Shown in pieces: positions 1 to 13,373 of a stretch of DNA of 22,140 bases (its first letter is position 1; the number at the start of each line of letters is the position of its first letter). Origin of the DNA: a virus (taxonomy: Duplodnaviria; Heunggongvirae; Uroviricota; Caudoviricetes); IMG/VR virus record IMGVR_UViG_2579779149_000003; one strand, given 5' to 3'. The notes beneath the pieces are model-generated. The model saw only the letters and a program-made list of their open reading frames with translations. It had not been told where the DNA came from and did no database searches. Position numbers and translations under genes: made by a program.

Positions 1-110
1 AGCTCTGCCACACGGAGCGCCAGTTCTTCTTTCGTCCCCGTCAGGCTGACATCACGGTTCAGTTGTTCACCCAGCGAGCGGAGACGGGCAATCAGTTCAT
101 TTTTCGTCAT
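1..110 (-). CDS. FI: Head-tail/DNA-packaging accessory protein FI, N-terminal 36 codons only (gene runs off the window start)
   Basis: Minus-strand ATG at 110..108 translates MTKDELIARLRSLGEQLNRDVSLTGTKEELALRVAEL, which I recognise as the start of lambda gpFI; it sits directly downstream of E as in lambda. Confidence 0.8.
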   Translation of the reverse strand, partial: MTKNELIARLRSLGEQLNRDVSLTGTKEELALRVAE

Positions 111-151
111 GGACTCCTCCACAGAGAAACAATGGCCCCGAAGGGCCATGA

Positions 152-1177
152 TTACGCCAGTTGTACGGACACGAACTCATCAGGGTCAGCCAGCAGCATC
201 AGCGGTGCTGACTGAATCATGGTGAACTCACGCGCCGGATCGCCGGTGGTCACCCAGTTTTTCGGGTAACGGGCAGAGGCGTTAATGCCTTCGCGCTGTG
301 CGTCCGCATCCTGAATGCAGCCATAGGTGCGCAGACCGCGTGCCTGAGTGTTCCCCAGCACCATCGTGTTGTCCGGCAGGAAGTTCTTTTTGACGCCGTT
401 TTCCACGTACTGTCCGGAATACACGACGATGGCCACATCGCCATACATCCCCTTATAGGACACCGCTTTGCCCAGGTCTTTCACCGCTGTCTCCAGCTCG
501 GAATGAGAGCCACGACGGGTATCCAGCTTCTCCTTGACGGCTTTGAAGGAACGGAACAGCGCCCAGCCTTTCGGATCGAACACGATGATATTCACCACAC
601 CGCTGGCGTTCAGCGCGTAGGCTTCGATATCGTCGGTCGGGTCATACGTGGACTTGTCACGCTTGCTCCACTCCGTGCCGCCGGACTGCGTGATGTTATT
701 CTCCTCACTGCGGCCCATATCCACCTCAACCGGATCGAAGGCTTCACCGGTCATGGTGTATTTGCCCTTAAGCACGGCAGAAACTGCCTGCATCTCTTCG
801 ACCTGAGCAATGGCCAGCTCTTCGTCACGCATGTTCTGCATGATGATGCGACGGCGGCGGTAAGCCGGGTCCGCCAGATTCTGCGGATCTTCATCCGGCA
901 GGCGACGCAGGGTCATCTGCGGATTCACTTCATGCTTCGGCTTGACATATCCCGGCGTAAATTCAGAGGTGGAGCCGCCACGGGAACGGATAACCTCACC
1001 GGAAACAATCGGCGAAACGTACAGCGCCATGTTTACCAGTCCCGGAATTTGTGAGAGATAGACTTTCTCCGTGGTGAAGGGATAGCTCTCACGGAAAAAG
1101 AGACGCAGAAACAGCGGATCAAACTTAAATTTCTGCTCATTTGCCGCCAGCAGTTGGGCGGTTGTGTACATCGACAT
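152..1177 (-). CDS. E: Major capsid protein E (lambda gpE-like, 341 aa)
   Basis: Full-length 341-aa ORF starting MSMYTTAQLLAANEQKFKFDPLFLRLFF, recognised as lambda gpE; sits between D and FI as in lambda. Confidence 0.96.
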   Translation of the reverse strand: MSMYTTAQLLAANEQKFKFDPLFLRLFFRESYPFTTEKVYLSQIPGLVNMALYVSPIVSGEVIRSRGGSTSEFTPGYVKPKHEVNPQMTLRRLPDEDPQNLADPAYRRRRIIMQNMRDEELAIAQVEEMQAVSAVLKGKYTMTGEAFDPVEVDMGRSEENNITQSGGTEWSKRDKSTYDPTDDIEAYALNASGVVNIIVFDPKGWALFRSFKAVKEKLDTRRGSHSELETAVKDLGKAVSYKGMYGDVAIVVYSGQYVENGVKKNFLPDNTMVLGNTQARGLRTYGCIQDADAQREGINASARYPKNWVTTGDPAREFTMIQSAPLMLLADPDEFVSVQLA

Positions 1178-1190
1178 AAAAAAATCCCGT

Positions 1191-1212
1191 AAAAAAAAGC
1201 CGCACAGGCGGC
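1191..1212 (-). terminator. Stem-loop plus U-run in the D-E intergenic space (attenuator or mRNA-stability hairpin rather than a full stop)
   Basis: Minus-strand RNA reads GCCGC-CUGU-GCGGC followed by eight U (plus strand a-run 1191..1198, stem 1199..1203 and 1208..1212). It lies inside the late operon, so a strong terminator is unlikely. Confidence 0.3.
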
Positions 1213-1233
1213 CTTTAGTGATGAAGGGTAAAG

Positions 1234-1566
1234 TTAAACGATGCTGATTGCCGTTCCGGCAAACGCGGTCCGTTTTTTCGTCTCGTCGCTGGCAGCCTCC
1301 GGCCAGAGCACATCCTCATAACGGAACGTGCCGGACTTGTAGAACGTCAGCGTGGTGCTGGTCTGGTCAGCAGCAACCGCAAGAATGCCAACGGCAGCAC
1401 CGTCGGTGGTGCCATCCCACGCAACCAGCTTACGGCTGGAGGTGTCCAGCATCAGCGGGGTCATTGCAGGCGCTTTCGCACTCAATCCGCCGGGCGCGGT
1501 TGCGGTATGAGCCGGGTCACTGTTGCCCAGCGGCTGGTAATGGGTAAAGGTTTCTTTGCTCGTCAT
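1234..1566 (-). CDS. D: Head decoration protein D (lambda gpD-like, 110 aa)
   Basis: ORF 1234..1572; the lambda gpD start [12 protein letters not shown] corresponds to the third codon, so start is placed at 1566. C-terminus ...[14 protein letters not shown] matches gpD. Confidence 0.93.
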
Positions 1567-1575
1567 AAACATCCC

Positions 1576-2181
1576 TTACACTGGTGTGTTCAGCAAATCG
1601 TTAACGGCATCAGATGCCGGGTTACCTGCAGCCAGCGGTGCCGGTGCCCCCTGCATCAGACGATCCAGCGCAGTGTCACTGCGCGCCTGTGCACTCTGTG
1701 GTGCTGCGGCCAGAATGCGGCGGGCCGTTTCCACGGTCATACCGGGGGTTTCTGCCAGCACGCGTGCCTGTTCTTCGCGTCCGTGAGCCTCCTCACAGTT
1801 GAGGATCCCCATAATGCGGCTGTTTTCTGCCGCAACCGCTGCGGTGATCTGCGCGTTCACGTCCGGCTGCGCCGCGCTGGCGTTTTCGCCCTCCGTCGCT
1901 GGCACCACGTCAGTAACGTCAGCCTGCGAAGCAGTGGCTGAAACAGTTGTTGATTGAGTCTCTTTGGTCATTCGCCCTCCTGAGAGACGGGATTTACGTG
2001 CATCCAGTGCATCACGCATGACGGTGATCGCATCGGTGCTGTTAACAAGTTCATCAGCCAGTCCGGCATCAATGGCCTCCTGACCGCTGTACACTGCAGC
2101 CTCGGTATCCAGCACAGCCTGCACGGACAGGCCGGTATATGCCGACACCTTCTGCGCAAACATCTGGCGGGTTGCGTCCAT
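1576..2181 (-). CDS. Nu3: Scaffolding protein Nu3 (in-frame internal start within C, 201 aa)
   Basis: Internal ATG at 2181..2179 in the C frame gives MDATRQMFAQKV... sharing the C stop; this is the known nested arrangement of lambda Nu3. Confidence 0.7.
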   Translation of the reverse strand: MDATRQMFAQKVSAYTGLSVQAVLDTEAAVYSGQEAIDAGLADELVNSTDAITVMRDALDARKSRLSGGRMTKETQSTTVSATASQADVTDVVPATEGENASAAQPDVNAQITAAVAAENSRIMGILNCEEAHGREEQARVLAETPGMTVETARRILAAAPQSAQARSDTALDRLMQGAPAPLAAGNPASDAVNDLLNTPV

Positions 2182-2875
2182 CCGGGACTGCAGTGTCTCC
2201 CGGACGTCATCCGGAAGATGGCTGTAGGGGTTGCCATCCACCTTATGGCTGCCGCTGTAAATCAGAGTGATTTCCACACCCTGTTTCTCCAGCGCAGCAC
2301 CGTAATTACTGTGAGCCATCATGACGCCGATGGAGCCTGTCCGGGCGGTCTGCGTGACCAGACGCCGGGAGGCGGCACTGGCAAGCAGCTGACCTGCACT
2401 GCAGTTCATGTCGTTGGCCAGCGCCCATACCGGTTTTATGTCACGCACACGGGCGATGATGTCAGCGCAGTCAAATGCCCCCGCCACCATCCCGCCGGGC
2501 GTGTCCATATCGAGCAGAATGCCGTCCACCATCGGATCGCTGGCAGCCTGTTGCAGACGGGCGATAATGCCGTTGTAACCGGTCATCCCCGAGTACGGCT
2601 GCAGCGCCCGCGTCCGGCTGACCAGCGTGCCGGACACCGGCAGCACGGCGATGCCGTTCATGACCTGATAACTGCGGGCCTGTCGTGGTCCGTCATCATC
2701 ACCGGATAATGCCAGCGTCGCGAGTGCCTCCTGGGCAGTCAGGCTGTCGCCGGACACCGCATCCATCAGGCGGCTGATCCCAAGCTGGCCTGCAAGCGCA
2801 CAAAAGAAAACCCGCGCATAGGCGGGTTCAAGCATCAGCGGCTCATTAAAAGCCATGCTGGCAATATGCGGGAGA

Positions 2876-2895
<20 letters not shown>
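1576..2895 (-). CDS. C: Head maturation protease/scaffold C (S49-type, lambda gpC-like, 439 aa, GTG start)
   Basis: The ORF is open from 3030, but the lambda gpC sequence (M)TAELRNLPHIASMAFNEPLML begins at a GTG 439 codons before the stop, giving the usual short overlap with the end of B. Contains the S49-like motif LLDMDTPGGMVAG. Confidence 0.9.
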
Positions 2896-6576
<3,681 letters not shown>

Positions 6577-6602
<26 letters not shown>

Positions 6603-7122
6603 TCAGCAACCCCGGTATCAGTTCATCCAGCGCGGCTGCTTTGTTCATGGCTTTGATGATATCCCGTTTCAGGAAATCAACATGTCGGTTTTCCAGTTCC
6701 GGAAAACGCCGCTGCACCGACAGGGGGATCCCGTCGAGAATACTGGCAATTTCACCTGCGATCCGCGACAGCACGAAAGTACAGAATGCGGTTTCCACCA
6801 CTTCAGCTGAGTCTCTGGCATTCTTCAGTTCCTGTGCGTCGGCCTGCGCACGCGTAAGTCGATGGCGTTCGTACTCAATAGTCCCTGGCTGGAGATCTGC
6901 CTCGCTGGCCTGGCGCAGTTCTTCAACCTCCCGGCGCAGCTTTTCGTTCTCAATTTCAGCATCCCTTTCGGCATACCATTTTATAACGGCGGCAGAGTCA
7001 TAAAGCACCTCATTACCCTTGCCACCGCCTCGCAGAACGGGCATTCCCTGTTCCTGCCAGTTCTGAATGGTACGGATACTCGCACCGAAAATGTCAGCCA
7101 GCTGCTTTTTGTTGACTTCCAT
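6577..7122 (-). CDS. Nu1: Terminase small subunit Nu1 (181 aa)
   Basis: 181-aa ORF MEVNKKQLADIFGASIRTIQNWQEQGMPVLRGGGKGNEVLYDS..., recognised as lambda gpNu1; immediately downstream of cos. Confidence 0.96.
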
Positions 7123-7340
7123 TGTTCATTCCACGGCCAAAAACAGAGAAAGGAAACGACAGAGGCCCAAAAGTTCGTTTTCAGCACCTGTCGTTTCCTT
7201 TCTTTTCAGGGGGTATTTTAAATAAAAACATTAAGTTACGACGAAGAAGAACGGAAACGCCTTAAACCGGAAAATTTTCATAAATAGCGAAAACCCGCGA
7301 GGTCGCCGCCCCGTAGCCTGTCGGATCGCCGGAAAGGACC
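7123..7340 (-). other. cos packaging site (cosB-cosN-cosQ); cosN 12-nt cohesive-end sequence at 7300..7311
   Basis: Reverse complement of 7290..7330 reads ...ACAGGCTACG GGGCGGCGACCT CGCGGGTTTTCGCTATTTATGAAAATTTTCCGG, i.e. the lambda right end joined to the left end with GGGCGGCGACCT intact; the following sequence toward Nu1 matches my recollection of lambda cosB. Confidence 0.85.
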
Positions 7341-7434
7341 CGCCAAAATGAAAATAACTATCAATTGTATTTATAGCTATGATATCCAGAATCATTACTG
7401 AAAGACTCTCTTTGATGTGCGCGTGCGATGCGCA

Positions 7435-7459
7435 TAAAAAAGCCCCGCTACTGCGAGGC
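7435..7459 (-). terminator. Rho-independent terminator downstream of the peptidase gene
   Basis: Minus-strand RNA GCCUCGC-AGUA-GCGGGGC (one G-U pair) followed by six U; sits 24 nt after the stop at 7483. Confidence 0.45.
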
Positions 7460-7482
7460 TAATATGGTGTGTAAATAGGTTC

Positions 7483-8385
7483 TTACGATTGCATATTCCA
7501 AATCATAGCATTCCCATTATGGTTTTCTATGATCTTTGCGATCGGGGCTCCACCAAACGAGTGCATGTAACTGTGATGTATGGTCAAAACCAAATCCTGG
7601 AGGACTTGATCACTTTCCAGTTCTGTAACATTCAATCCAATTTTCTGAGCTTTATCGAAATGGATATGTCTCGAATGAGTGTAAGTTGTATGATGATTGT
7701 TCAGCTCTGAGCATACATGAGTTGCTTTTGTTTCTGACTCCGGATCATTTGCAAACATACCCGTCATAAGCCAGTGCTTGACAATCTCATTCGCCCATTG
7801 GATAGCTTTTTCACACTCTCCGATAATAGTGGGGTTGAGTTTCTGAAGTATAAACTGCCACATTTGCACAGCTGCTGGATTGTTAAAAATTTCCGCCTGA
7901 GCTCTATTCCATTCCTCAATAATAGCATGTGTAGAAAATCCATTAAACTGAGGGTCAATCGGGCCAATATTGGACTGTTTACCCATTATGATTTCATTAG
8001 CACAGCACGCAAGCATGGTACCACATGACATTGAAATCATAGGAACGATAGCTCTGATATCAGTCCCAAACTTAGAACGCAGATAATGACCAATAGACTC
8101 TAAGGCAGCGATATCACCTCCAGGGGTATGTAATATTAAATCCACCCCCTTTGTAACATCTAAACCATTAATAACAGTCATTAATCCATTTTTATCATCA
8201 TCTGTCATCAGGGTGAGATGTCGGACTTCTGCACCACCATGTTGCAACCATCCGGAATAATATGTAATTACATTTCTTCCAGTGTGATTAGACAGTTGTA
8301 ATAAATATTTACGGCGAACCTCATCCATCGGACTCTTCTGGGCGAGAGCCGTCATCTCGCCCAGTACGTCACTCCAATTAGGCAT
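7483..8385 (-). CDS. ClpP-fold serine peptidase (S49/SppA-like or SDH-type), 300 aa, AT-rich accessory gene
   Basis: 300-aa ORF with LILHTPGGDIAALESIGHYL and MISMSCGTMLACCAN motifs, resembling the TPGG and active-site serine regions of S49/ClpP-fold peptidases (compare LLDMDTPGG in gpC in this window). No SD; the ATG lies 5 nt after the upstream stop, implying translational coupling. Family assignment is from motif recognition only. Confidence 0.7.
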   Translation of the reverse strand: MPNWSDVLGEMTALAQKSPMDEVRRKYLLQLSNHTGRNVITYYSGWLQHGGAEVRHLTLMTDDDKNGLMTVINGLDVTKGVDLILHTPGGDIAALESIGHYLRSKFGTDIRAIVPMISMSCGTMLACCANEIIMGKQSNIGPIDPQFNGFSTHAIIEEWNRAQAEIFNNPAAVQMWQFILQKLNPTIIGECEKAIQWANEIVKHWLMTGMFANDPESETKATHVCSELNNHHTTYTHSRHIHFDKAQKIGLNVTELESDQVLQDLVLTIHHSYMHSFGGAPIAKIIENHNGNAMIWNMQS

Positions 8386-8390
8386 GGTGT

Positions 8391-8591
8391 TTAGTAGGTG
8401 TAAAGTTGATGATGTGTACTTTGATTTTGCTTAGCCTGCGCTGCAGTACCTTGAGAGTACCAAACGCCGGTACTACCACTCGTACTCGTTTGTTGAGCAA
8501 GTACCCTGGAAGCAAAGTTGTTAACAGTTTCTCCAGTCATCATCTCTGCAGGTTTAATGCCATAGAAATCGTAGAACTCAGCCGGGCTCAT
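8391..8591 (-). CDS. Hypothetical 66-aa protein, first gene of the peptidase operon
   Basis: ORF MSPAEFYDFYGIKPAEMMTGETVNNFASRVLAQQTSTSGSTGVWYSQGTAAQAKQNQSTHHQLYTY with a good SD (AGGAG about 8 nt upstream of the ATG at 8591); its stop is 5 nt before the peptidase ATG. No family recognised. Confidence 0.55.
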   Translation of the reverse strand: MSPAEFYDFYGIKPAEMMTGETVNNFASRVLAQQTSTSGSTGVWYSQGTAAQAKQNQSTHHQLYTY

Positions 8592-8615
8592 AGTGGAATC
8601 TCCTATTGTAGTGCT

Positions 8616-8653
8616 ACATATAGTGTTTTTTTAACACTGAAAACACTATATGT
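8616..8653. promoter_or_regulatory. Nested palindromic operator-like element in the promoter region of the small-ORF/peptidase operon
   Basis: ACATATAGTGTT (8616..8627) and its exact reverse complement AACACTATATGT (8642..8653), with an internal palindrome AGTGTT-TTTTT-AACACT (8622..8638), 25-60 bp upstream of the ATG at 8591. Confidence 0.4.
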
Positions 8654-8676
8654 GCCATTTACTCAATTTCTAAATG

Positions 8677-8700
8677 TGCAAAAAGCCTCAAATGAGGCTT
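8677..8700 (-). terminator. Terminator-like hairpin upstream of the small-ORF/peptidase operon
   Basis: Perfect inverted repeat AGCCTC-AAAT-GAGGCT (8684..8699); on the minus-strand RNA it is followed by UUUUU. Separates the operon from upstream minus-strand transcription. Confidence 0.4.
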
Positions 8701-8853
8701 AAAAAAAATGAAAAGCTGCTTTCTATGGCTGAACTATAGCGAGTTCCCCACATTTTTTACAACCACAAAATGCTCTTTTACGGCAAAACAATTCTTAGAT
8801 AAAACACACAACCATGTCGCACTTACACACATTCGCTTACAAAAGTATTAGTT

Positions 8854-9069
8854 TCAATACATTCTACAGTTAGCCTGCACTGATTTGTTATGCGCCAATA
8901 TGTCCCGCTTCGTCTGCTTATCCTGCACGGTAATATCGTGCTCAGTGAGGTAGATGATGTTCACCCAGTCACAAGCCGTGTCTGTTACTGCAGTTTTTTC
9001 GGGTAAATCTTTCGCGCAACTCACGGTCAACATCGCCATCAGGAAGATGATTAACAATCTGCTGTACAT
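8854..9069 (-). CDS. Putative o-spanin-like secreted or lipoprotein (71 aa), overlapping the 3' end of the preceding gene in another frame
   Basis: MYSRLLIIFLMAMLTVSCAKDLPEKTAV... has a signal-peptide-like N-terminus with Cys18 (non-canonical lipobox TVSC). It starts inside and extends beyond the 8969..9247 ORF, the overlapped Rz/Rz1-type architecture. Confidence 0.35.
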   Translation of the reverse strand: MYSRLLIIFLMAMLTVSCAKDLPEKTAVTDTACDWVNIIYLTEHDITVQDKQTKRDILAHNKSVQANCRMY

Positions 9070-9247
9070 CCCAGGCTCCTTTTGTTGTTTCTACCCGGCG
9101 TATTGCAACGACTTCAGTAGCAGTTGCACGTTCTTTAGTGCGTTGCTGGTTCGCTTTTGTCTCAGCGATACTTGCACCGCGAGATTTACCCAGACCAAAA
9201 GCACCGGCTATTACTGCCAGCAAGGCAGCAATCAGGCCGACAATCAT
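8969..9247 (-). CDS. Putative i-spanin-like membrane protein (92 aa from the internal ATG at 9247)
   Basis: From ATG 9247: MIVGLIAALLAVIAGAFGLGKSRGASIAETKANQQRTKERATATEVV..., an N-terminal TM helix followed by a charged domain. Starts 20 nt after the stop of the endolysin remnant. The longer 166-aa version of this ORF was rejected. Confidence 0.35.
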   Translation of the reverse strand: MIVGLIAALLAVIAGAFGLGKSRGASIAETKANQQRTKERATATEVVAIRRVETTKGAWDVQQIVNHLPDGDVDRELRERFTRKNCSNRHGL

Positions 9248-9269
9248 TTCAATTCCCACATAGACCTCA

Positions 9270-9440
9270 CACCAATGCGGCTTTAGCTTTGACGTAACGT
9301 TCACGGCGGTCTTTAATGCCGTTTTTCCCACCATTAATAATCTGCGTGACGCGCTCCAGATCTTCCGGGTAAAGGAGACAACCACGTAACGTGAAGAACC
9401 AAGCAGCAGAACGGGGAGCATGAGAGACAAACCCGCGAAC
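9270..9440 (-). pseudogene. 3' remnant of a GH19 (chitinase-like) endolysin gene
   Basis: The minus-strand frame ending at stop 9267..9269 translates ...SAAWFFTLRGCLLYPEDLERVTQIINGGKNGIKDRRERYVKAKAALV, matching the conserved C-terminal IINGG-NG-DR-RY motif of GH19 endolysins. The frame upstream has no credible N-terminal catalytic domain and is closed by a stop near 9500. Confidence 0.5.
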
Positions 9441-9677
9441 CATAAACGCGGTAAAAACCCTGTGTGCATCGTTTTTAATTATTCCCGGACACTCCCGCAG
9501 AGAAGTTCCCCGTCAGGGCTGTGGACATAGTTAATCCGGGAATACAATGACGATTCATCGCACCTGACATACATTAATAAATATTAACAATATGAAATTT
9601 CAACTCATTGTTTAGGGTTTGTTTAATTTTCTACACATACGATTCTGCGAACTTCAAAAAGCATCGGGAATAACACC

Positions 9678-9971
9678 ATGAAAAAAATGCTACTCGCTAC
9701 TGCGCTGGCCCTGCTTATTACAGGATGTGCTCAACAGACGTTTACTGTTCAAAACAAACCGGCAGCAGTAGCACCAAAGGAAACCATCACCCATCATTTC
9801 TTCGTTTCGGGAATTGGACAGGAGAAAACTGTTGATGCAGCCAAAATTTGTGGCGGCGCAGAAAATGTTGTTAAAACAGAAACCCAGCAAACATTCGTAA
9901 ATGGATTTCTCGGTTTTATTACTTTAGGCATTTATACTCCACTGGAAGCGCGTGTGTATTGCTCACAATAA
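9678..9971 (+). CDS. bor: Bor lipoprotein (serum-resistance lysogenic-conversion protein, 97 aa)
   Basis: MKKMLLATALALLITGCAQQTFTVQNKPAAVAPKETITHHFFVSGIGQ... matches lambda Bor; opposite strand to the lysis genes as in lambda. Confidence 0.95.
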   Translation: MKKMLLATALALLITGCAQQTFTVQNKPAAVAPKETITHHFFVSGIGQEKTVDAAKICGGAENVVKTETQQTFVNGFLGFITLGIYTPLEARVYCSQ

Positions 9972-10002
9972 TTGCATGAGTTGCCCATCGATATGGGCAG
10001 CT

Positions 10003-10479
10003 CTATCTGCACTGCTCATTAATATACTTCTGGGTTCCTTCCAGTTGTTTTTGCATAGTGATCAGCCTCTCTCTGAGGGTGAAATAATCCCGTTCAGCGG
10101 TGTCTGCCAGTCGGGGGCTGGTTGCATTATCCACGCCGGAGGCGGTGGTGGCTTCACGCACTGACTGACAGACTGCTTTGATGTGCAACCGACGACGACC
10201 AGCGGCAACATCAGCGCGCAGAGTTTCATTTTCAGCTTTCGCATTGGCTAATTCTCTCGAGTACTTTGCATCGAGTGCAGCAACATCACGCTGACGCTGC
10301 TGCATGTCAGCGATGGTGGCGATCGACTGCTTCAGCTCACTGACTTTTTTATCACGCTGTTCTTTGTAGGCGATGGCGTTATCACGGTAATGATTGACCG
10401 CCCACGACAGGCAGACGATGATGCAGATAACCAAAGCATAAATAATCGCGGCGACTCTGCTCACTGCTCTATCCCCCAA
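10003..10479 (-). CDS. Rz: i-spanin Rz (lambda-like)
   Basis: 158-aa ORF with N-terminal TM segment [25 protein letters not shown] and C-terminus ...[23 protein letters not shown], as in lambda Rz. Confidence 0.9.
10062..10244 (-). CDS. Rz1: o-spanin Rz1 lipoprotein, embedded in Rz in the +1 frame
   Basis: [60 protein letters not shown]: lipobox VVGC and proline-rich tail, lambda Rz1-like. Confidence 0.9.
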
Positions 10480-10994
10480 CAGGCTAATGCGCTTTCCTGG
10501 TCACGACGAATAACCTGTCCATAGCAGTTATTTGAACGTATGCGGCAATCGCGCCCACCATCTTTTATCCACCAGCGAATCGCCTCGCATGCGCCCTTAC
10601 GATCACCGGCATTCAGCCGCTTATAAAACGTCGACGGGAAACACTTACCGGGGCCAATGTTATAGGGACAGAATGACGCTATACCCGCTTTTTGTGGTTC
10701 GGTCAGTGGTACTTTAATATTGCGCTCCACCCATGCCAGCGCCTTATCACGCTCAATGGCGTTGACCTGGTCGCATTTTTCCTTCGACAGTTTCATACCG
10801 GGAAAAACGGGTTTTCCATCCACCATCGTGGCACCCCGACAGATGGTCCAGATGCCGGACCCATCGCGGTATGCCGTTGTGTGGTTACCTTCTTTTTCAT
10901 CCAGAAACTGGTCGAGAATATCAGGCGCGGGCGCACCGACGGCAATCAGTGCCAGAACGGCAGCCGACAGGCCGTATCTGATTTTTGCGTTCAT
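10461..10994 (-). CDS. R: SAR endolysin (T4-lysozyme-type muramidase, RrrQ/R21-like, 177 aa)
   Basis: N-terminal signal-anchor-release-like segment [17 protein letters not shown] followed by the catalytic region [20 protein letters not shown]; resembles the E. coli Qin-prophage lysozyme RrrQ as I recall it. Confidence 0.88.
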
Positions 10995-11057
10995 GGATAT
11001 TTATCAGGATTTATCGGTTTCTGCCCACGGACAGGTTTATCTGTTCCGGTCAGTGAC

Positions 11058-11408
11058 TTAAGGTTGTGATTCCGGAGGAGTCTTCAGAGAACCAGTAATT
11101 CTTCCCGGTAGCTTTCCTTTGTAGGTTATCCATACATTCTGCGCCTCTAAAATTACGGGGCGCTTTTCCGGCGACTGCTCATCCCCTTCACATAACCCGG
11201 CAGCAACATCCAGGAAGACCTGTCTGATGCTCATTCTGGCTGCTGCCTCATAAAACTCCAGCGCGGCACCTTCAACACGGTCCAGCGAGATGTCCAGGTC
11301 AAAAATTTCACCGTCAAAGCGTTTTTTGTCCCGTAACGCTAAAGTTACCGTAACTTTATTCTCAAAATTGCGGATCCCTTTCACAATCAGTTCATAGTTT
11401 TGAGTCAT
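11058..11408 (-). CDS. Hypothetical protein between holin and endolysin (YdfR-like, possibly DUF1327), 116 aa
   Basis: Soluble 116-aa ORF in the position occupied by ydfR in Qin-type lysis cassettes; family assignment from gene position and vague recollection only. Confidence 0.5.
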   Translation of the reverse strand: MTQNYELIVKGIRNFENKVTVTLALRDKKRFDGEIFDLDISLDRVEGAALEFYEAAARMSIRQVFLDVAAGLCEGDEQSPEKRPVILEAQNVWITYKGKLPGRITGSLKTPPESQP

Positions 11409-11412
11409 TGAA

Positions 11413-11628
11413 TTACTCTCCCCGTGCAGCCTTACGCTTGTCTTCTCTGATTTTGAAGTACAGATTTGTCAGATAAGTCAGGAAGCCCAGAACCAGACTC
11501 CCAAGTACACCAATCGCAGCCCACTGTGACGGACTGACCTGATCAAGCCACTGTAAAAACCAGTAGCCAGCACTGCCTGCGGAGGTGCCGTAGGCAATGC
11601 CCGTTGAAATTTTGTCCATGGATTTCAT
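11413..11628 (-). CDS. S: Class II pinholin (phage 21 S21 / EssQ-like, 71 aa, dual-start motif MKSM)
   Basis: [71 protein letters not shown] matches the S21 pinholin: two TM segments and a Met-Lys-Ser-Met dual start. Confidence 0.9.
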
Positions 11629-12449: not shown

Positions 12450-12494
12450 TATCTGTATCCTGTGGCTATTTCTCTTGCGCAAAGGATGCTTTTG

Positions 12495-13373
12495 ATGACG
12501 CAGCAACTCGAAAACATGCCAATAACAGAAATCGAAATTGCCTACGGTGGAGAGGCATACGCAGATAATCAGATCGACGCGAAAACATTAGGCGAAGCCT
12601 TAACCTCTCTTAGTGCCCTGATTGAACACGCCGAAAAAATAATTAATGGCGAAACAGCAGAGCCGAAAGTCAACATCAAGGCAACAAAAGAAGGTTCATT
12701 TACTTTGCTTGTTGCTGTGATGGGGAGCATAAAAACTATTAACGCCCTTGGCCTCGTTGCAGGTGGTGGAGTTGCCGCAGGTGGCGTACTCGGGATAATC
12801 GAATGGCTCAAAGGGCGTAAAATCAGCTCCATTGTCGTCGATGAACAAAAAGATACAGCAGAAATCGAAGTGGATGGTGAGAAGGTTAAATGCAGTAACG
12901 ACATTCAAAAATTAATAACCAGTCCAATCATCCGAAAAGAACTGGATAAATTAATCTATAAACCCCTGCAGACTGAAAAACCATCCACGTTCTCAGTTTC
13001 ACAGCAGAAGCATAAGGTAGTCAGGGTGACGCAAGCTGAAGCAGTAAGTTTTAAAACTGCAAAATCCACCTTTGTCGAGAAAACGCACGTAACGACACGC
13101 CAAGCTAATGTACATTTTGCTAATGTTCGATTCAAGCAAGGCAAAAGCTGGGATATCATCCTGCCAAATGGCGAAGAAGTTAGCGCATCTATGAAAGATG
13201 AGGCTTTTCTTGAACGGGTTGAACACAACCAAGCAGCATTCTGTAAGGGTGATCTTTTTGTTGTAGAACTGACAGAAACAACAAAAGAAACAAATGGCGC
13301 GCTGTCTAAACCACGCTATAGTATTACTAAGGTTATACGCCACAGAGCGGCGGCAGATAGGAAACTACTTTAA
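12495..13373 (+). CDS. Hypothetical membrane-associated protein (about 292 aa), first gene of an AT-rich three-gene cassette
   Basis: ORF open from 12462 (GTG); the preferred start ATG 12495 (MTQQLENMPITEIEIAYGGE...) has AAGGA 9 nt upstream. Central glycine-rich hydrophobic segment SFTLLVAVMGSIKTINALGLVAGGGVAAGGVLGIIEWL flanked by soluble N- and C-terminal regions. No family recognised. Confidence 0.65.
   Translation: MTQQLENMPITEIEIAYGGEAYADNQIDAKTLGEALTSLSALIEHAEKIINGETAEPKVNIKATKEGSFTLLVAVMGSIKTINALGLVAGGGVAAGGVLGIIEWLKGRKISSIVVDEQKDTAEIEVDGEKVKCSNDIQKLITSPIIRKELDKLIYKPLQTEKPSTFSVSQQKHKVVRVTQAEAVSFKTAKSTFVEKTHVTTRQANVHFANVRFKQGKSWDIILPNGEEVSASMKDEAFLERVEHNQAAFCKGDLFVVELTETTKETNGALSKPRYSITKVIRHRAAADRKLL

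Follow-up and report, generated by a model that had tools for sequence, protein, structure and literature searches.

A probable 0.6-kb recombination scar in a lambda-like Escherichia coli prophage: a dead GH19 endolysin stump and an open but redundant spanin gene pair

The segment described here is a 0.6-kb scar in a lambda-like E. coli prophage, in which the dead 3' piece of a GH19 endolysin gene is followed by an open but redundant pair of spanin genes. It lies in a 22,140-nucleotide stretch of Caudoviricetes DNA (IMG/VR record IMGVR_UViG_2579779149_000003), the whole of which we call the window (Table 1). We consider it very probable (roughly 0.85) that this is the recombination scar of a holin-holin-GH19-spanin cassette, in which the endolysin stump is dead and the gene pair is a young, undisrupted but drifting relic, at most dispensable; the functionality of the pair today is uncertain. 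The region is an ordinary mosaic-junction remnant, a by-product of the swapping of phage modules, and represents no new system or mechanism. An initial annotation had proposed a truncated GH19 endolysin, an overlapped i-spanin/o-spanin pair and a recombination junction. The endolysin stump and both small ORFs are found on the minus strand at the coordinates it had given, and its reading is borne out by a RefSeq pseudogene, by intact relatives and by the listing of Kongari et al. (2018).

Table 1. Features of the scar and of its surroundings, in window coordinates.
Feature	Position	Strand	Remark
Resident complete lysis cassette	10003..11628	-	context
P21-type holin	11628-11413	-	
DUF1327	11408-11058	-	
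Lysozyme	10994-10461	-	
Rz	10479-10003	-	
Rz1	10244-10062	-	embedded in Rz
bor lipoprotein gene	9678-9971	+	opposite strand
End of lambda-like segment (left junction)	9455..9562	-	equivalent to lambda 46867-46974, bor upstream region
32-nt filler between lambda and GH19 homology	9423..9454	-	three-way comparison of the window, lambda and L002 (an E. coli prophage with an intact cassette)
GH19 3' fragment	9267..9422	-	codons 154-204 and stop; pseudogene
i-spanin-like gene	8969..9259	-	96 aa, GTG start, phrog_1026
o-spanin-like lipoprotein gene	8854..9069	-	71 aa, phrog_1275
Right junction	8854..8867	-	E. coli GH19 cassette homology ends at 8867, just past the Cys68 codon
orf66	8591-8391	-	low-GC, moron-like block (7483..8591)
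SDH-type ClpP-like serine proteinase	8385-7483	-	same moron-like block as orf66

What is left of the endolysin gene is contained in a 58-aa minus-strand ORF (9443-9267) whose C-terminus reads ...YPEDLERVTQIINGGKNGIKDRRERYVKAKAALV. This ORF matches the endolysin family phrog_181 (E 3e-14), and its last 51 residues are 84% identical (BLASTP, E 4e-31) to residues 154-204 of the intact 204-aa GH19 endolysin of the E. coli prophage L002. The GH19 C-terminal motif recognised initially thus reflects significant similarity, and the truncation point maps to GH19 codon 154, at position 9422. The intact homologue belongs to Pfam PF00182 (Glyco_hydro_19) and matches the SPN1S endolysin (PDB 4OK7) with an E-value of 3e-79. 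The stump is homologous to the C-terminal helices of such SPN1S-type enzymes (...SAAWFF...VTQIINGG.NG..DR..RY...), but the whole N-terminal module of 153 residues is gone, and with it Glu49 and Glu58 of the HES...VEN motif of the intact homologue, which we take to be the catalytic glutamates of GH19 enzymes. As the break at codon 154 has removed both the catalytic residues and any credible translation start, the stump is dead. The ATG at 9443 is spurious, being supplied by the filler, and no Shine-Dalgarno site stands in front of it; the filler encodes the first seven codons of the ORF (MVRGFVS), which have no GH19 similarity. The stump alone does not reach the Pfam threshold and has no significant match in NCBIfam or PADLOC. 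In RefSeq this stretch is a partial GH19 pseudogene, labelled "incomplete; missing N-terminus". Judged by its sequence, 9267..9422 is a pseudogene fragment and no member enzyme.

The module junction can be pinned to the base. Homology to lambda (from Rz to bor) and to 167 phage records ends at 9455, and homology to the GH19 cassette spans 9422 to about 8857. In prophages that have no bor (L010 and L018), the stretch 9455..9562 is a diverged allele, with near-identity from about 9460. At the other end, L019, whose tail (...NCMMYEGAKS) is a closer variant, remains homologous as far as about 8857, at the stop codon. Between these limits the DNA is colinear with intact cassettes over 556 nt, at 87-89% and with no indels. 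The scar would thus be the last ~566 bp of a holin-holin-GH19 endolysin-spanin cassette of the mEp390/HK639 type, common in Enterobacteriaceae prophages; the break would have fallen inside the endolysin gene, at codon 154, with the two downstream genes surviving whole. Its placement beyond a functional lysis cassette and bor, as initially described, agrees with the complete cassette and the bor gene found there, and the host prophage still looks complete. The shortness of the pieces is the sole point in favour of a chance similarity of the ORFs and the GH19-like motif, or of an assembly artefact. This is refuted, and we regard it as practically out of the question, given E-values of 1e-14 to 1e-31, the colinear homology to intact cassettes, and the recurrence of the same or nearly the same arrangement in 7 independent complete genomes as well as in other assemblies (24 contigs read of 116 indexed blocks of a sequence collection).

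The first of the two surviving genes encodes a transmembrane (TM) protein whose family-conserved start lies at 9259, as GTG here and ATG in the intact relatives, with a GAGG Shine-Dalgarno site 5 nt before it. The one-TM protein of the initial annotation is therefore real, but not the start that gave it 92 aa, the ATG at 9247 being the internal Met5 of a 96-aa protein. Kyte-Doolittle values of 1.8-2.6 (19-residue windows) across residues 1-26 indicate a single N-terminal TM segment, conserved in the family; the helix, at about residues 3-24, is followed by a charged, putatively helical domain. An AlphaFold model has helices at 3-21, 31-69 and 74-88, with a mean pLDDT of only 57, too low for the model to be used in the fold search. 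The protein matches phrog_1026 ("Rz-like spanin", E 1.8e-27) and is 64% identical to mEp390 gp51 (E 8e-40). Its HMM score is the 10th from the bottom of 121, still in the family range. Four substitutions (E42K, E53I, T68I and D75G) fall at positions that are 82-96% conserved, and the residues introduced occur there in 0-1% of 119 homologue clusters. A C-terminal extension of 7 residues was considered as a possible defect and rejected, the same 96-aa form being present in an intact GH108 cassette.

The second gene, a 71-aa ORF (9069-8854) with MYSRLLIIFLMAMLTVSC, has the full-length form conserved in the family, with AAGGAG 6 nt before its ATG; this bears out the coordinates and the length first proposed for a signal-peptide/Cys protein, and makes the RefSeq call of 59 aa 12 codons too short. 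By pattern inspection it is a lipoprotein, with the signal peptide MYSRLLIIFLMAMLTVS ahead of C18-A19 and the lipobox LTVS-C18 (family consensus MLIASC); M1, L6, L14, S17 and C18 are invariant across 30 homologues. The +2 residue is Ala19 and not Asp, which is the outer-membrane sorting pattern. Cys33 and Cys68, both invariant in the family, are kept, as is every other family-invariant column. The protein matches phrog_1275 ("Rz-like spanin", E 1.5e-27), shares 62% identity with the full-length o-spanin of mEp390 (E 1e-28) and has an HMM score above the family median. Past Cys68 only RMY remains. We rejected the idea that the o-spanin is dead through C-terminal truncation, because this tail is unconserved and naturally ranges from 0 to 14 aa, and comparison with the L019 relative (MMYEGAKS) puts the loss at only about 5 residues.

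The two genes overlap out of frame by 101 nt (9259-8969 and 9069-8854), as against 80 nt in the intact L002, so that the overlapped architecture first suspected is confirmed by measurement. Their homologues in HK639 and mEp390 are catalogued as overlapped spanins by Kongari et al. (2018, PMC6139136, Tables 3 and 4), who place the i-spanins in the group "(HK639, mEP390)" and the o-spanins in the family "BcepNazgul". In the same survey, 507 of 528 spanin systems have one or more periplasmic Cys through which a disulfide could link them. The pattern here, no Cys in the i-spanin and two in the o-spanin, is the commonest one. Both genes lie directly 3' of the endolysin stump, and in the intact relatives the same two genes follow two holins and a GH19 endolysin (L002, L003, L007, L008) or a GH108 endolysin (L005). 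On this homology, the pair belongs to the HK639/mEp390 overlapped spanin type. In intact cassettes, the i-spanin would be an inner-membrane-anchored helical protein and the o-spanin an outer-membrane lipoprotein; together they would span the periplasm and complete lysis by disrupting the outer membrane. The small genes are not lambda p78/p79, the known lambda-region genes with which comparison had initially been suggested: tblastn of these against the window gave a best E-value of 0.58, and nothing in the window corresponds to the lambda DNA right of 46974.

One might still ask whether the small genes encode a membrane protein and a lipoprotein of another kind, such as a regulator of lysis or a lipoprotein that modifies the surface, retained for another role. 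PHROGs alone recognised the two proteins, Pfam, NCBIfam and PADLOC giving no significant match for either, and our literature search found neither an experiment on the family nor a description of this remnant. The i-spanin is short (89-96 aa in the family), its model has the low confidence given above, and the alignment reads MGIEM before the helix and GKSRG after it, so that an N-in orientation is not obviously favoured, a caveat that extends to the family as a whole; the lack of a basic residue ahead of the helix, with KSR just behind it, would misfit the positive-inside rule for an N-in/C-out i-spanin. The o-spanin model, moreover, is a folded helical domain that does not have the proline richness of Rz1. 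Against this, the pair always stands directly after the endolysin at the end of a lysis cassette, be it of GH19 or GH108 type, its out-of-frame overlap is typical of spanins, and the Ala at +2 and the 0/2 Cys pattern fit spanins as well. The curated listings and the PHROG annotation both say spanin, annotated o-spanins are among the structures that the o-spanin model matches, if weakly (E 0.01-0.02, TM 0.53-0.61), and the absence of a PADLOC match also tells against another role. We therefore hold a non-spanin role to be very improbable.

The initial suggestion that the pair may still be intact holds for the reading frames. Neither ORF has a stop or a frameshift, the 556 aligned nt are free of indels, each gene retains its own Shine-Dalgarno site, and the lipobox and both Cys are conserved. 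Situated between Rz and the terminase genes and oriented like the late operon, the pair would presumably be transcribed late. It holds less well for the i-spanin, which shows signs of relaxed constraint at the sequence level. In the non-overlapping part of this gene, lineage-specific changes number N12:S3 (nonsynonymous:synonymous) in the remnant, as against N4:S17 for three lineages with intact cassettes (Fisher p = 5e-4), and N17:S6 versus N7:S27 when the GH19 fragment is added (p = 1e-4); these counts were made by parsimony with three intact references only, on a branch part of which predates the truncation and belongs to a donor lineage that is unsampled. Several of the i-spanin changes sit in the weakly constrained TM helix. 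The core of the o-spanin has a single lineage-specific change (N1:S0) and pairwise dN/dS values of 0.08-0.17. Divergence inside the remnant clade, at about 1%, is too low to measure selection after the truncation; its polymorphisms are mostly nonsynonymous (~N4:S1).

These data bear on the possibility that only the endolysin stump is junk and that the pair is a functional second spanin system under selection, an orthogonal backup or complement to Rz/Rz1. If functional, the pair would be made late beside Rz/Rz1, giving two orthogonal spanin complexes, and would be carried along with the packaging/head module. The open and indel-free ORFs, the preserved translation and lipoprotein signals and family-invariant columns, the low dN/dS of the o-spanin core and the HMM scores of both proteins in the family range are all in keeping with this, as are the identical i-spanin in 116 indexed blocks and the persistence of the remnant across at least three combinations of upstream modules. 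Yet the N:S ratio of the i-spanin (12:3) is near the neutral expectation, its four substitutions at conserved positions are radical, and its start codon has been weakened from ATG to GTG. The nonsynonymous polymorphisms of the clade point the same way, and in a clade so young open ORFs are expected even without selection. Moreover, all three left contexts that were checked have an intact Rz/Rz1, and linkage to the terminase/head module can account for the persistence. We consider a functional pair unlikely; if it were true, it would provide evidence from nature that a spanin pair is able to act with holins and an endolysin foreign to it, and that such a pair can be retained in reserve. The pair appears, rather, to be redundant with the resident Rz/Rz1 and drifting, most clearly so for the i-spanin.

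The distribution of this drifting remnant bears on its origin. A search of 5426 complete E. coli genomes finds it in 7, and the index of the sequence collection gives 116 blocks with the identical i-spanin, of which 24 contigs were read. One and the same right flank (orf66/protease) was found in all 9 loci examined with gene calls. The left contexts are of three different kinds, with an intact Rz and an embedded Rz1 lipoprotein in one translated representative of each. Among the 5426 genomes, the flank 8380-8866 is confined to the 7 that bear the remnant; no near match to it was found in 50,697 phage records, and neither an "empty site" nor a donor (an intact GH19 cassette with the same right flank) was found in either set. 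With the flank so restricted, the order of the recombination events cannot be reconstructed. The initial annotation took part of another phage's lysis module to have been captured here; the recombination junction stands, but the direction of exchange is not fixed by the data. The remnant always travels with orf66, the protease and the terminase, and the lysis modules upstream of it differ; it is therefore at least as likely to be the residue of a resident cassette displaced by an incoming lysis module. The remnant is probably co-inherited with the downstream orf66/protease/terminase block, the upstream lysis modules being exchanged.

The main value of the case lies in annotation and in the reading of phage mosaicism. 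Two RefSeq "hypothetical proteins" become spanins of the HK639/mEp390 type, with which they share the families, the out-of-frame overlap, the place after a GH19 endolysin and the 0/2 Cys pattern. Unlike its counterparts in HK639 and mEp390, the pair here is orphaned, the holins being gone and the endolysin cut to 51 codons, and a second, complete lysis cassette and bor lie upstream of it; the i-spanin starts with GTG, is extended by 7 residues at its C-terminus and carries the four atypical substitutions, and the o-spanin tail is reduced to RMY. With lambda Rz/Rz1 (PF03245, PF06085), an intact copy of which lies 0.5-1.2 kb upstream of the remnant, the pair shares the proposed job of bridging the periplasm by an inner-membrane protein and an outer-membrane lipoprotein, but no sequence similarity. 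The genes are overlapped here and embedded in lambda, the i-spanin has 96 aa as against ~153, and the o-spanin is a helical two-Cys domain and not a proline-rich peptide.

A spanin pair parted from its own holin and endolysin, and lying beside an intact Rz/Rz1, is a convenient test case for the rate at which redundant lysis genes decay, and the same natural example is suited to asking whether spanins are interchangeable between cassettes. Remnants of the rzpR/rzoR and rzpQ/rzoQ type, in the defective Rac and Qin prophages of K-12, are spanin genes that persist after prophage recombination or decay has parted them from a matching holin and endolysin. The remnant described here differs from these in that its prophage looks complete, its spanins are of a different family, and it lies beside an intact cassette and not in a decayed element.

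The prophage segment between bor and orf66 of this lambdoid E. coli prophage, whose late genes lie on the minus strand (see table), is in all probability (about 85%) the scar of a lysis cassette with an orphan spanin pair. An E. coli assembly contig matches the window from 12000 to 6500 at 99.7% identity, and the E. coli EC14 chromosome matches 1-10468 at about 98%. The three frames reported by the initial annotation exist on the window, and its interpretation (a truncated GH19 endolysin and a spanin pair at a recombination junction) holds, with corrections to the gene models and junctions. RefSeq already flags the endolysin stump as a pseudogene, the two spanin genes being listed there only as 'hypothetical proteins'.

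Late-region genes of the window, listed in the direction of late transcription
Feature	Coordinates	Strand	Basis or remark
Antiterminator Q	14382-14023	-	Pfam scan
P21-type holin	11628-11413	-	Pfam scan
DUF1327 protein	11408-11058	-	Pfam scan
Lysozyme	10994-10461	-	Pfam scan
Rz	10479-10003	-	Pfam scan
Rz1, embedded in Rz	10244-10062	-	
bor	9678-9971	+	Between Rz and remnant
orf66, 66 aa	8591-8391	-	phrog_25714
SDH-type ClpP-like serine proteinase, 300 aa	8385-7483	-	PF01972
Nu1	7122-6577	-	Pfam scan
Terminase large subunit	6602-4677	-	Pfam scan

The first piece of the remnant is a 58-aa frame (9443-9267, minus strand), whose final 51 residues align without gaps with residues 154-204 of the intact 204-aa GH19 endolysin of E. 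coli DA33137 (84% identity, E 4e-31). The fragment also matches the PHROG endolysin family phrog_181 (E 3e-14); PF00182 is present in the intact homologue, for which the SPN1S endolysin of known structure (4OK7) is a match at E 3e-79. In EC14 and strain 2017-02-2CC, RefSeq labels the identical stretch 'glycoside hydrolase family 19 protein; incomplete; missing N-terminus'. The fragment lacks the HES...VEN region, with residues 49 and 58 of the intact protein, which we take to be the two catalytic glutamates of GH19 enzymes. No Shine-Dalgarno site precedes the fortuitous ATG of the stump, which would be inactive even if made.

The two ORFs downstream match the PHROG 'Rz-like spanin' families phrog_1026 (i-spanin, E 1.8e-27) and phrog_1275 (o-spanin, E 1.5e-27). 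The same spanin pair stands directly behind two holin genes and a complete GH19 endolysin gene in phage mEp390 and in intact prophages of E. coli; in one metagenomic contig it comes after a GH108 endolysin instead. Kongari et al. 2018 (PMC6139136) have (HK639, mEP390) among their groups of overlapped i-spanins, with the o-spanins of these phages in the BcepNazgul overlapped family; the mEp390 proteins are 64% (i-spanin) and 62% (o-spanin) identical to those of the window. The family matches, the position in intact cassettes and this listing together support an overlapped i-spanin/o-spanin pair. Lambda p78 and p79, proposed earlier for comparison, both lack a homologue in the window, and our literature search found no experiment on the HK639/mEp390-type spanin family.

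The i-spanin start of the family corresponds to window 9259, where MG(L/I)EM is nearly invariant; five intact cassettes have ATG at this codon, and the window has GTG, preceded by GAGG at a distance of 5 nt. The product is thus of 96 aa, and the ATG at 9247 first proposed as the start of a 92-aa protein is its Met5. The 71-aa o-spanin model (start 9069, MYSRLL..., AAGGAG 6 nt upstream) is conserved family-wide and is to be preferred to the 59-aa call of RefSeq. The two genes share 101 nt, read in different frames. The RefSeq protein (WP_029397176.1, window 9033-8854) begins at an internal ATG 12 codons downstream of 9069, a choice that cuts off half of the signal peptide together with the n-region. 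Throughout the i-spanin family no basic residue precedes the Gly/Ala-rich TM helix (MG[LI]EM; MGIEM in the window) and KSR follows it directly, so that the flanking charges, as read from the proteins, do not appear to fit the usual positive-inside bias for the N-in/C-out orientation that i-spanins need.

A megablast search against 50,697 phage records placed the left junction. Sequence of lambda type, comprising Rz, bor and the region upstream of bor, reaches only to window 9455 (lambda 46974); the adjoining 32 nt (9454-9423) show no resemblance to lambda or to GH19 genes, and from 9422 to 8867 the homology to three E. coli GH19 cassettes is colinear, with zero gaps and 87-89% identity. The right break falls at the extreme end of the o-spanin: homology to most cassettes stops just past the last conserved Cys codon, and with a contig whose o-spanin ends in ...NCMMYEGAKS it goes on through ...NC(R/M)MY to the window stop codon at about 8857. 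The cassette has thus left a piece of about 566 bp, which grows to about 598 bp when the 32-nt filler is counted in.

Among 5426 complete E. coli genomes, 7 carry the remnant, always with the same right flank (orf66, SDH protease, Nu1). The identical i-spanin protein occurs in 116 blocks of the collection index, for which 24 contigs were read and 8 places listed. Three left contexts were found: Rz/Rz1 and bor, as in the window; a different lysozyme with Rz/Rz1 and no bor; and a further lysis set with a KilA-N gene after it. The remnant thus stays with the packaging and head side of the genome, the lysis modules on its left being exchanged. It is either the residue of the original cassette of the right-hand module or a fragment brought in with that module, the data being compatible with both directions.

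The second and third contexts have a diverged allele at 9455-9562 and become near-identical to the window at about 9460. This stretch of some 100 nt of lambda-like bor-upstream sequence thus exists as two distinct alleles, with about 25 differences per 100 nt between the window and bor-less loci (L010, L018), which are at least 99% identical to the window right of about 9460. This point is a sharp recombination boundary, reused in bor-carrying and bor-less prophages alike. A reciprocal kind of scar is found in E. coli STE15 (NZ_CP095823, locus 3397-3978), where an intact GH19 cassette complete with its spanin pair precedes a piece of lambda-type Rz/Rz1, annotated as an Rz1 lipoprotein; beyond that piece, 53 nt from the 3' end of the o-spanin gene occur a second time. 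Such lysis-module junctions evidently recur, and the remnant is an ordinary product of lambdoid mosaicism.

The spanin pair itself is structurally intact. The o-spanin retains all invariant columns of a 30-sequence alignment, including M1, L6, L14, S17, the lipobox C18, D30, T31, C33 and W35, through N67 and C68. Its RMY tail is within the normal range, since the unconserved tails past C68 are 0-14 residues long in all but five of 118 sequences (the five outliers, 18-46). The i-spanin has a 7-residue C-terminal extension, because the stop codon that normally lies within the overlap has been lost; the intact GH108 cassette has the same extension. AlphaFold predicts for the i-spanin, with low confidence (pLDDT 57), a TM helix (3-21) and helices 31-69 and 74-88, and for the o-spanin a signal helix and a small helical domain (residues 31-70 at pLDDT 81-91), whose weak fold matches include annotated o-spanins. 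The Cys pattern (none in the i-spanin, two periplasmic in the o-spanin) is the commonest among spanins and is shared with T4 PseT.3/PseT.2.

Sequence evolution points to relaxed constraint on the i-spanin. In a codon-by-codon comparison with three intact E. coli cassettes, the lineage-specific nonsynonymous:synonymous counts in its 63 non-overlapping codons were 12:3 for the remnant and 4:17 for the three intact cassettes combined (Fisher p = 5e-4), or 17:6 against 7:27 with the GH19 stump included (p = 1e-4), the long branch of the remnant taking in history within an unsampled intact donor and several of the i-spanin changes falling in the TM helix. Pairwise dN/dS over this part was 0.23-0.66 between window and intact cassettes and 0.09-0.13 among the latter. 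Four changes (E42K, E53I, T68I, D75G) affect positions conserved at 82-96% in 119 homologue clusters, the window residues being found in 0-1% of homologue sequences; by HMM score the i-spanin is the tenth lowest of 121, inside the family range. For the o-spanin, the non-overlapping counts were 1:0 and 1:4, core dN/dS against intact cassettes was low (0.08-0.17) and the HMM score exceeded the median. Copies of the remnant differ by about 1%, with nonsynonymous differences A29T, V50A and T86I/P23S (and E24K in another cluster) and one synonymous difference each in the stump and the o-spanin; this agrees with relaxed constraint, in counts too small to decide. As indels are wholly lacking, the truncation seems to be recent relative to the remnant branch.

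Rz/Rz1 is intact in the window, and Rz with its embedded Rz1 lipoprotein ORF is intact in one translated representative of each bor-less context; the pair is therefore redundant in every context checked. In lambda, the Q-antiterminated late transcript passes through the corresponding region. Since the remnant stands in late orientation between the lysis and terminase genes and no convincing minus-strand terminator was found ahead of it (the sole candidate being a weak hairpin in the i-spanin TM coding region), the late transcript should cross it here as well, and both spanin genes could be translated from their own Shine-Dalgarno sites. If competent, the pair would form a second bridge from the inner to the outer membrane, acting after peptidoglycan degradation; if not, it would be neutral cargo. 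We consider it unlikely that it is still functional and maintained.

The orf66/protease block always linked to the remnant (7441-8850, minus strand) resembles a moron and separates the lysis genes from cos/Nu1. The block has low GC (0.39-0.45), an AT-rich upstream stretch (8600-8850, GC 0.335) containing promoter-like sites, and a strong terminator-like hairpin at 7460-7441. Its nearest phage relatives (Shewanella, Porphyromonas and Gordonia phages) are just 37-46% identical, and the block has no PADLOC match. A possible defence moron of the prophage lies between the antiterminator and holin genes: a 303-aa ORF opposite to the late genes (12462-13373, plus strand), without a Pfam domain, whose PADLOC match is to the candidate defence family PDC-S42 (E 3.3e-53).
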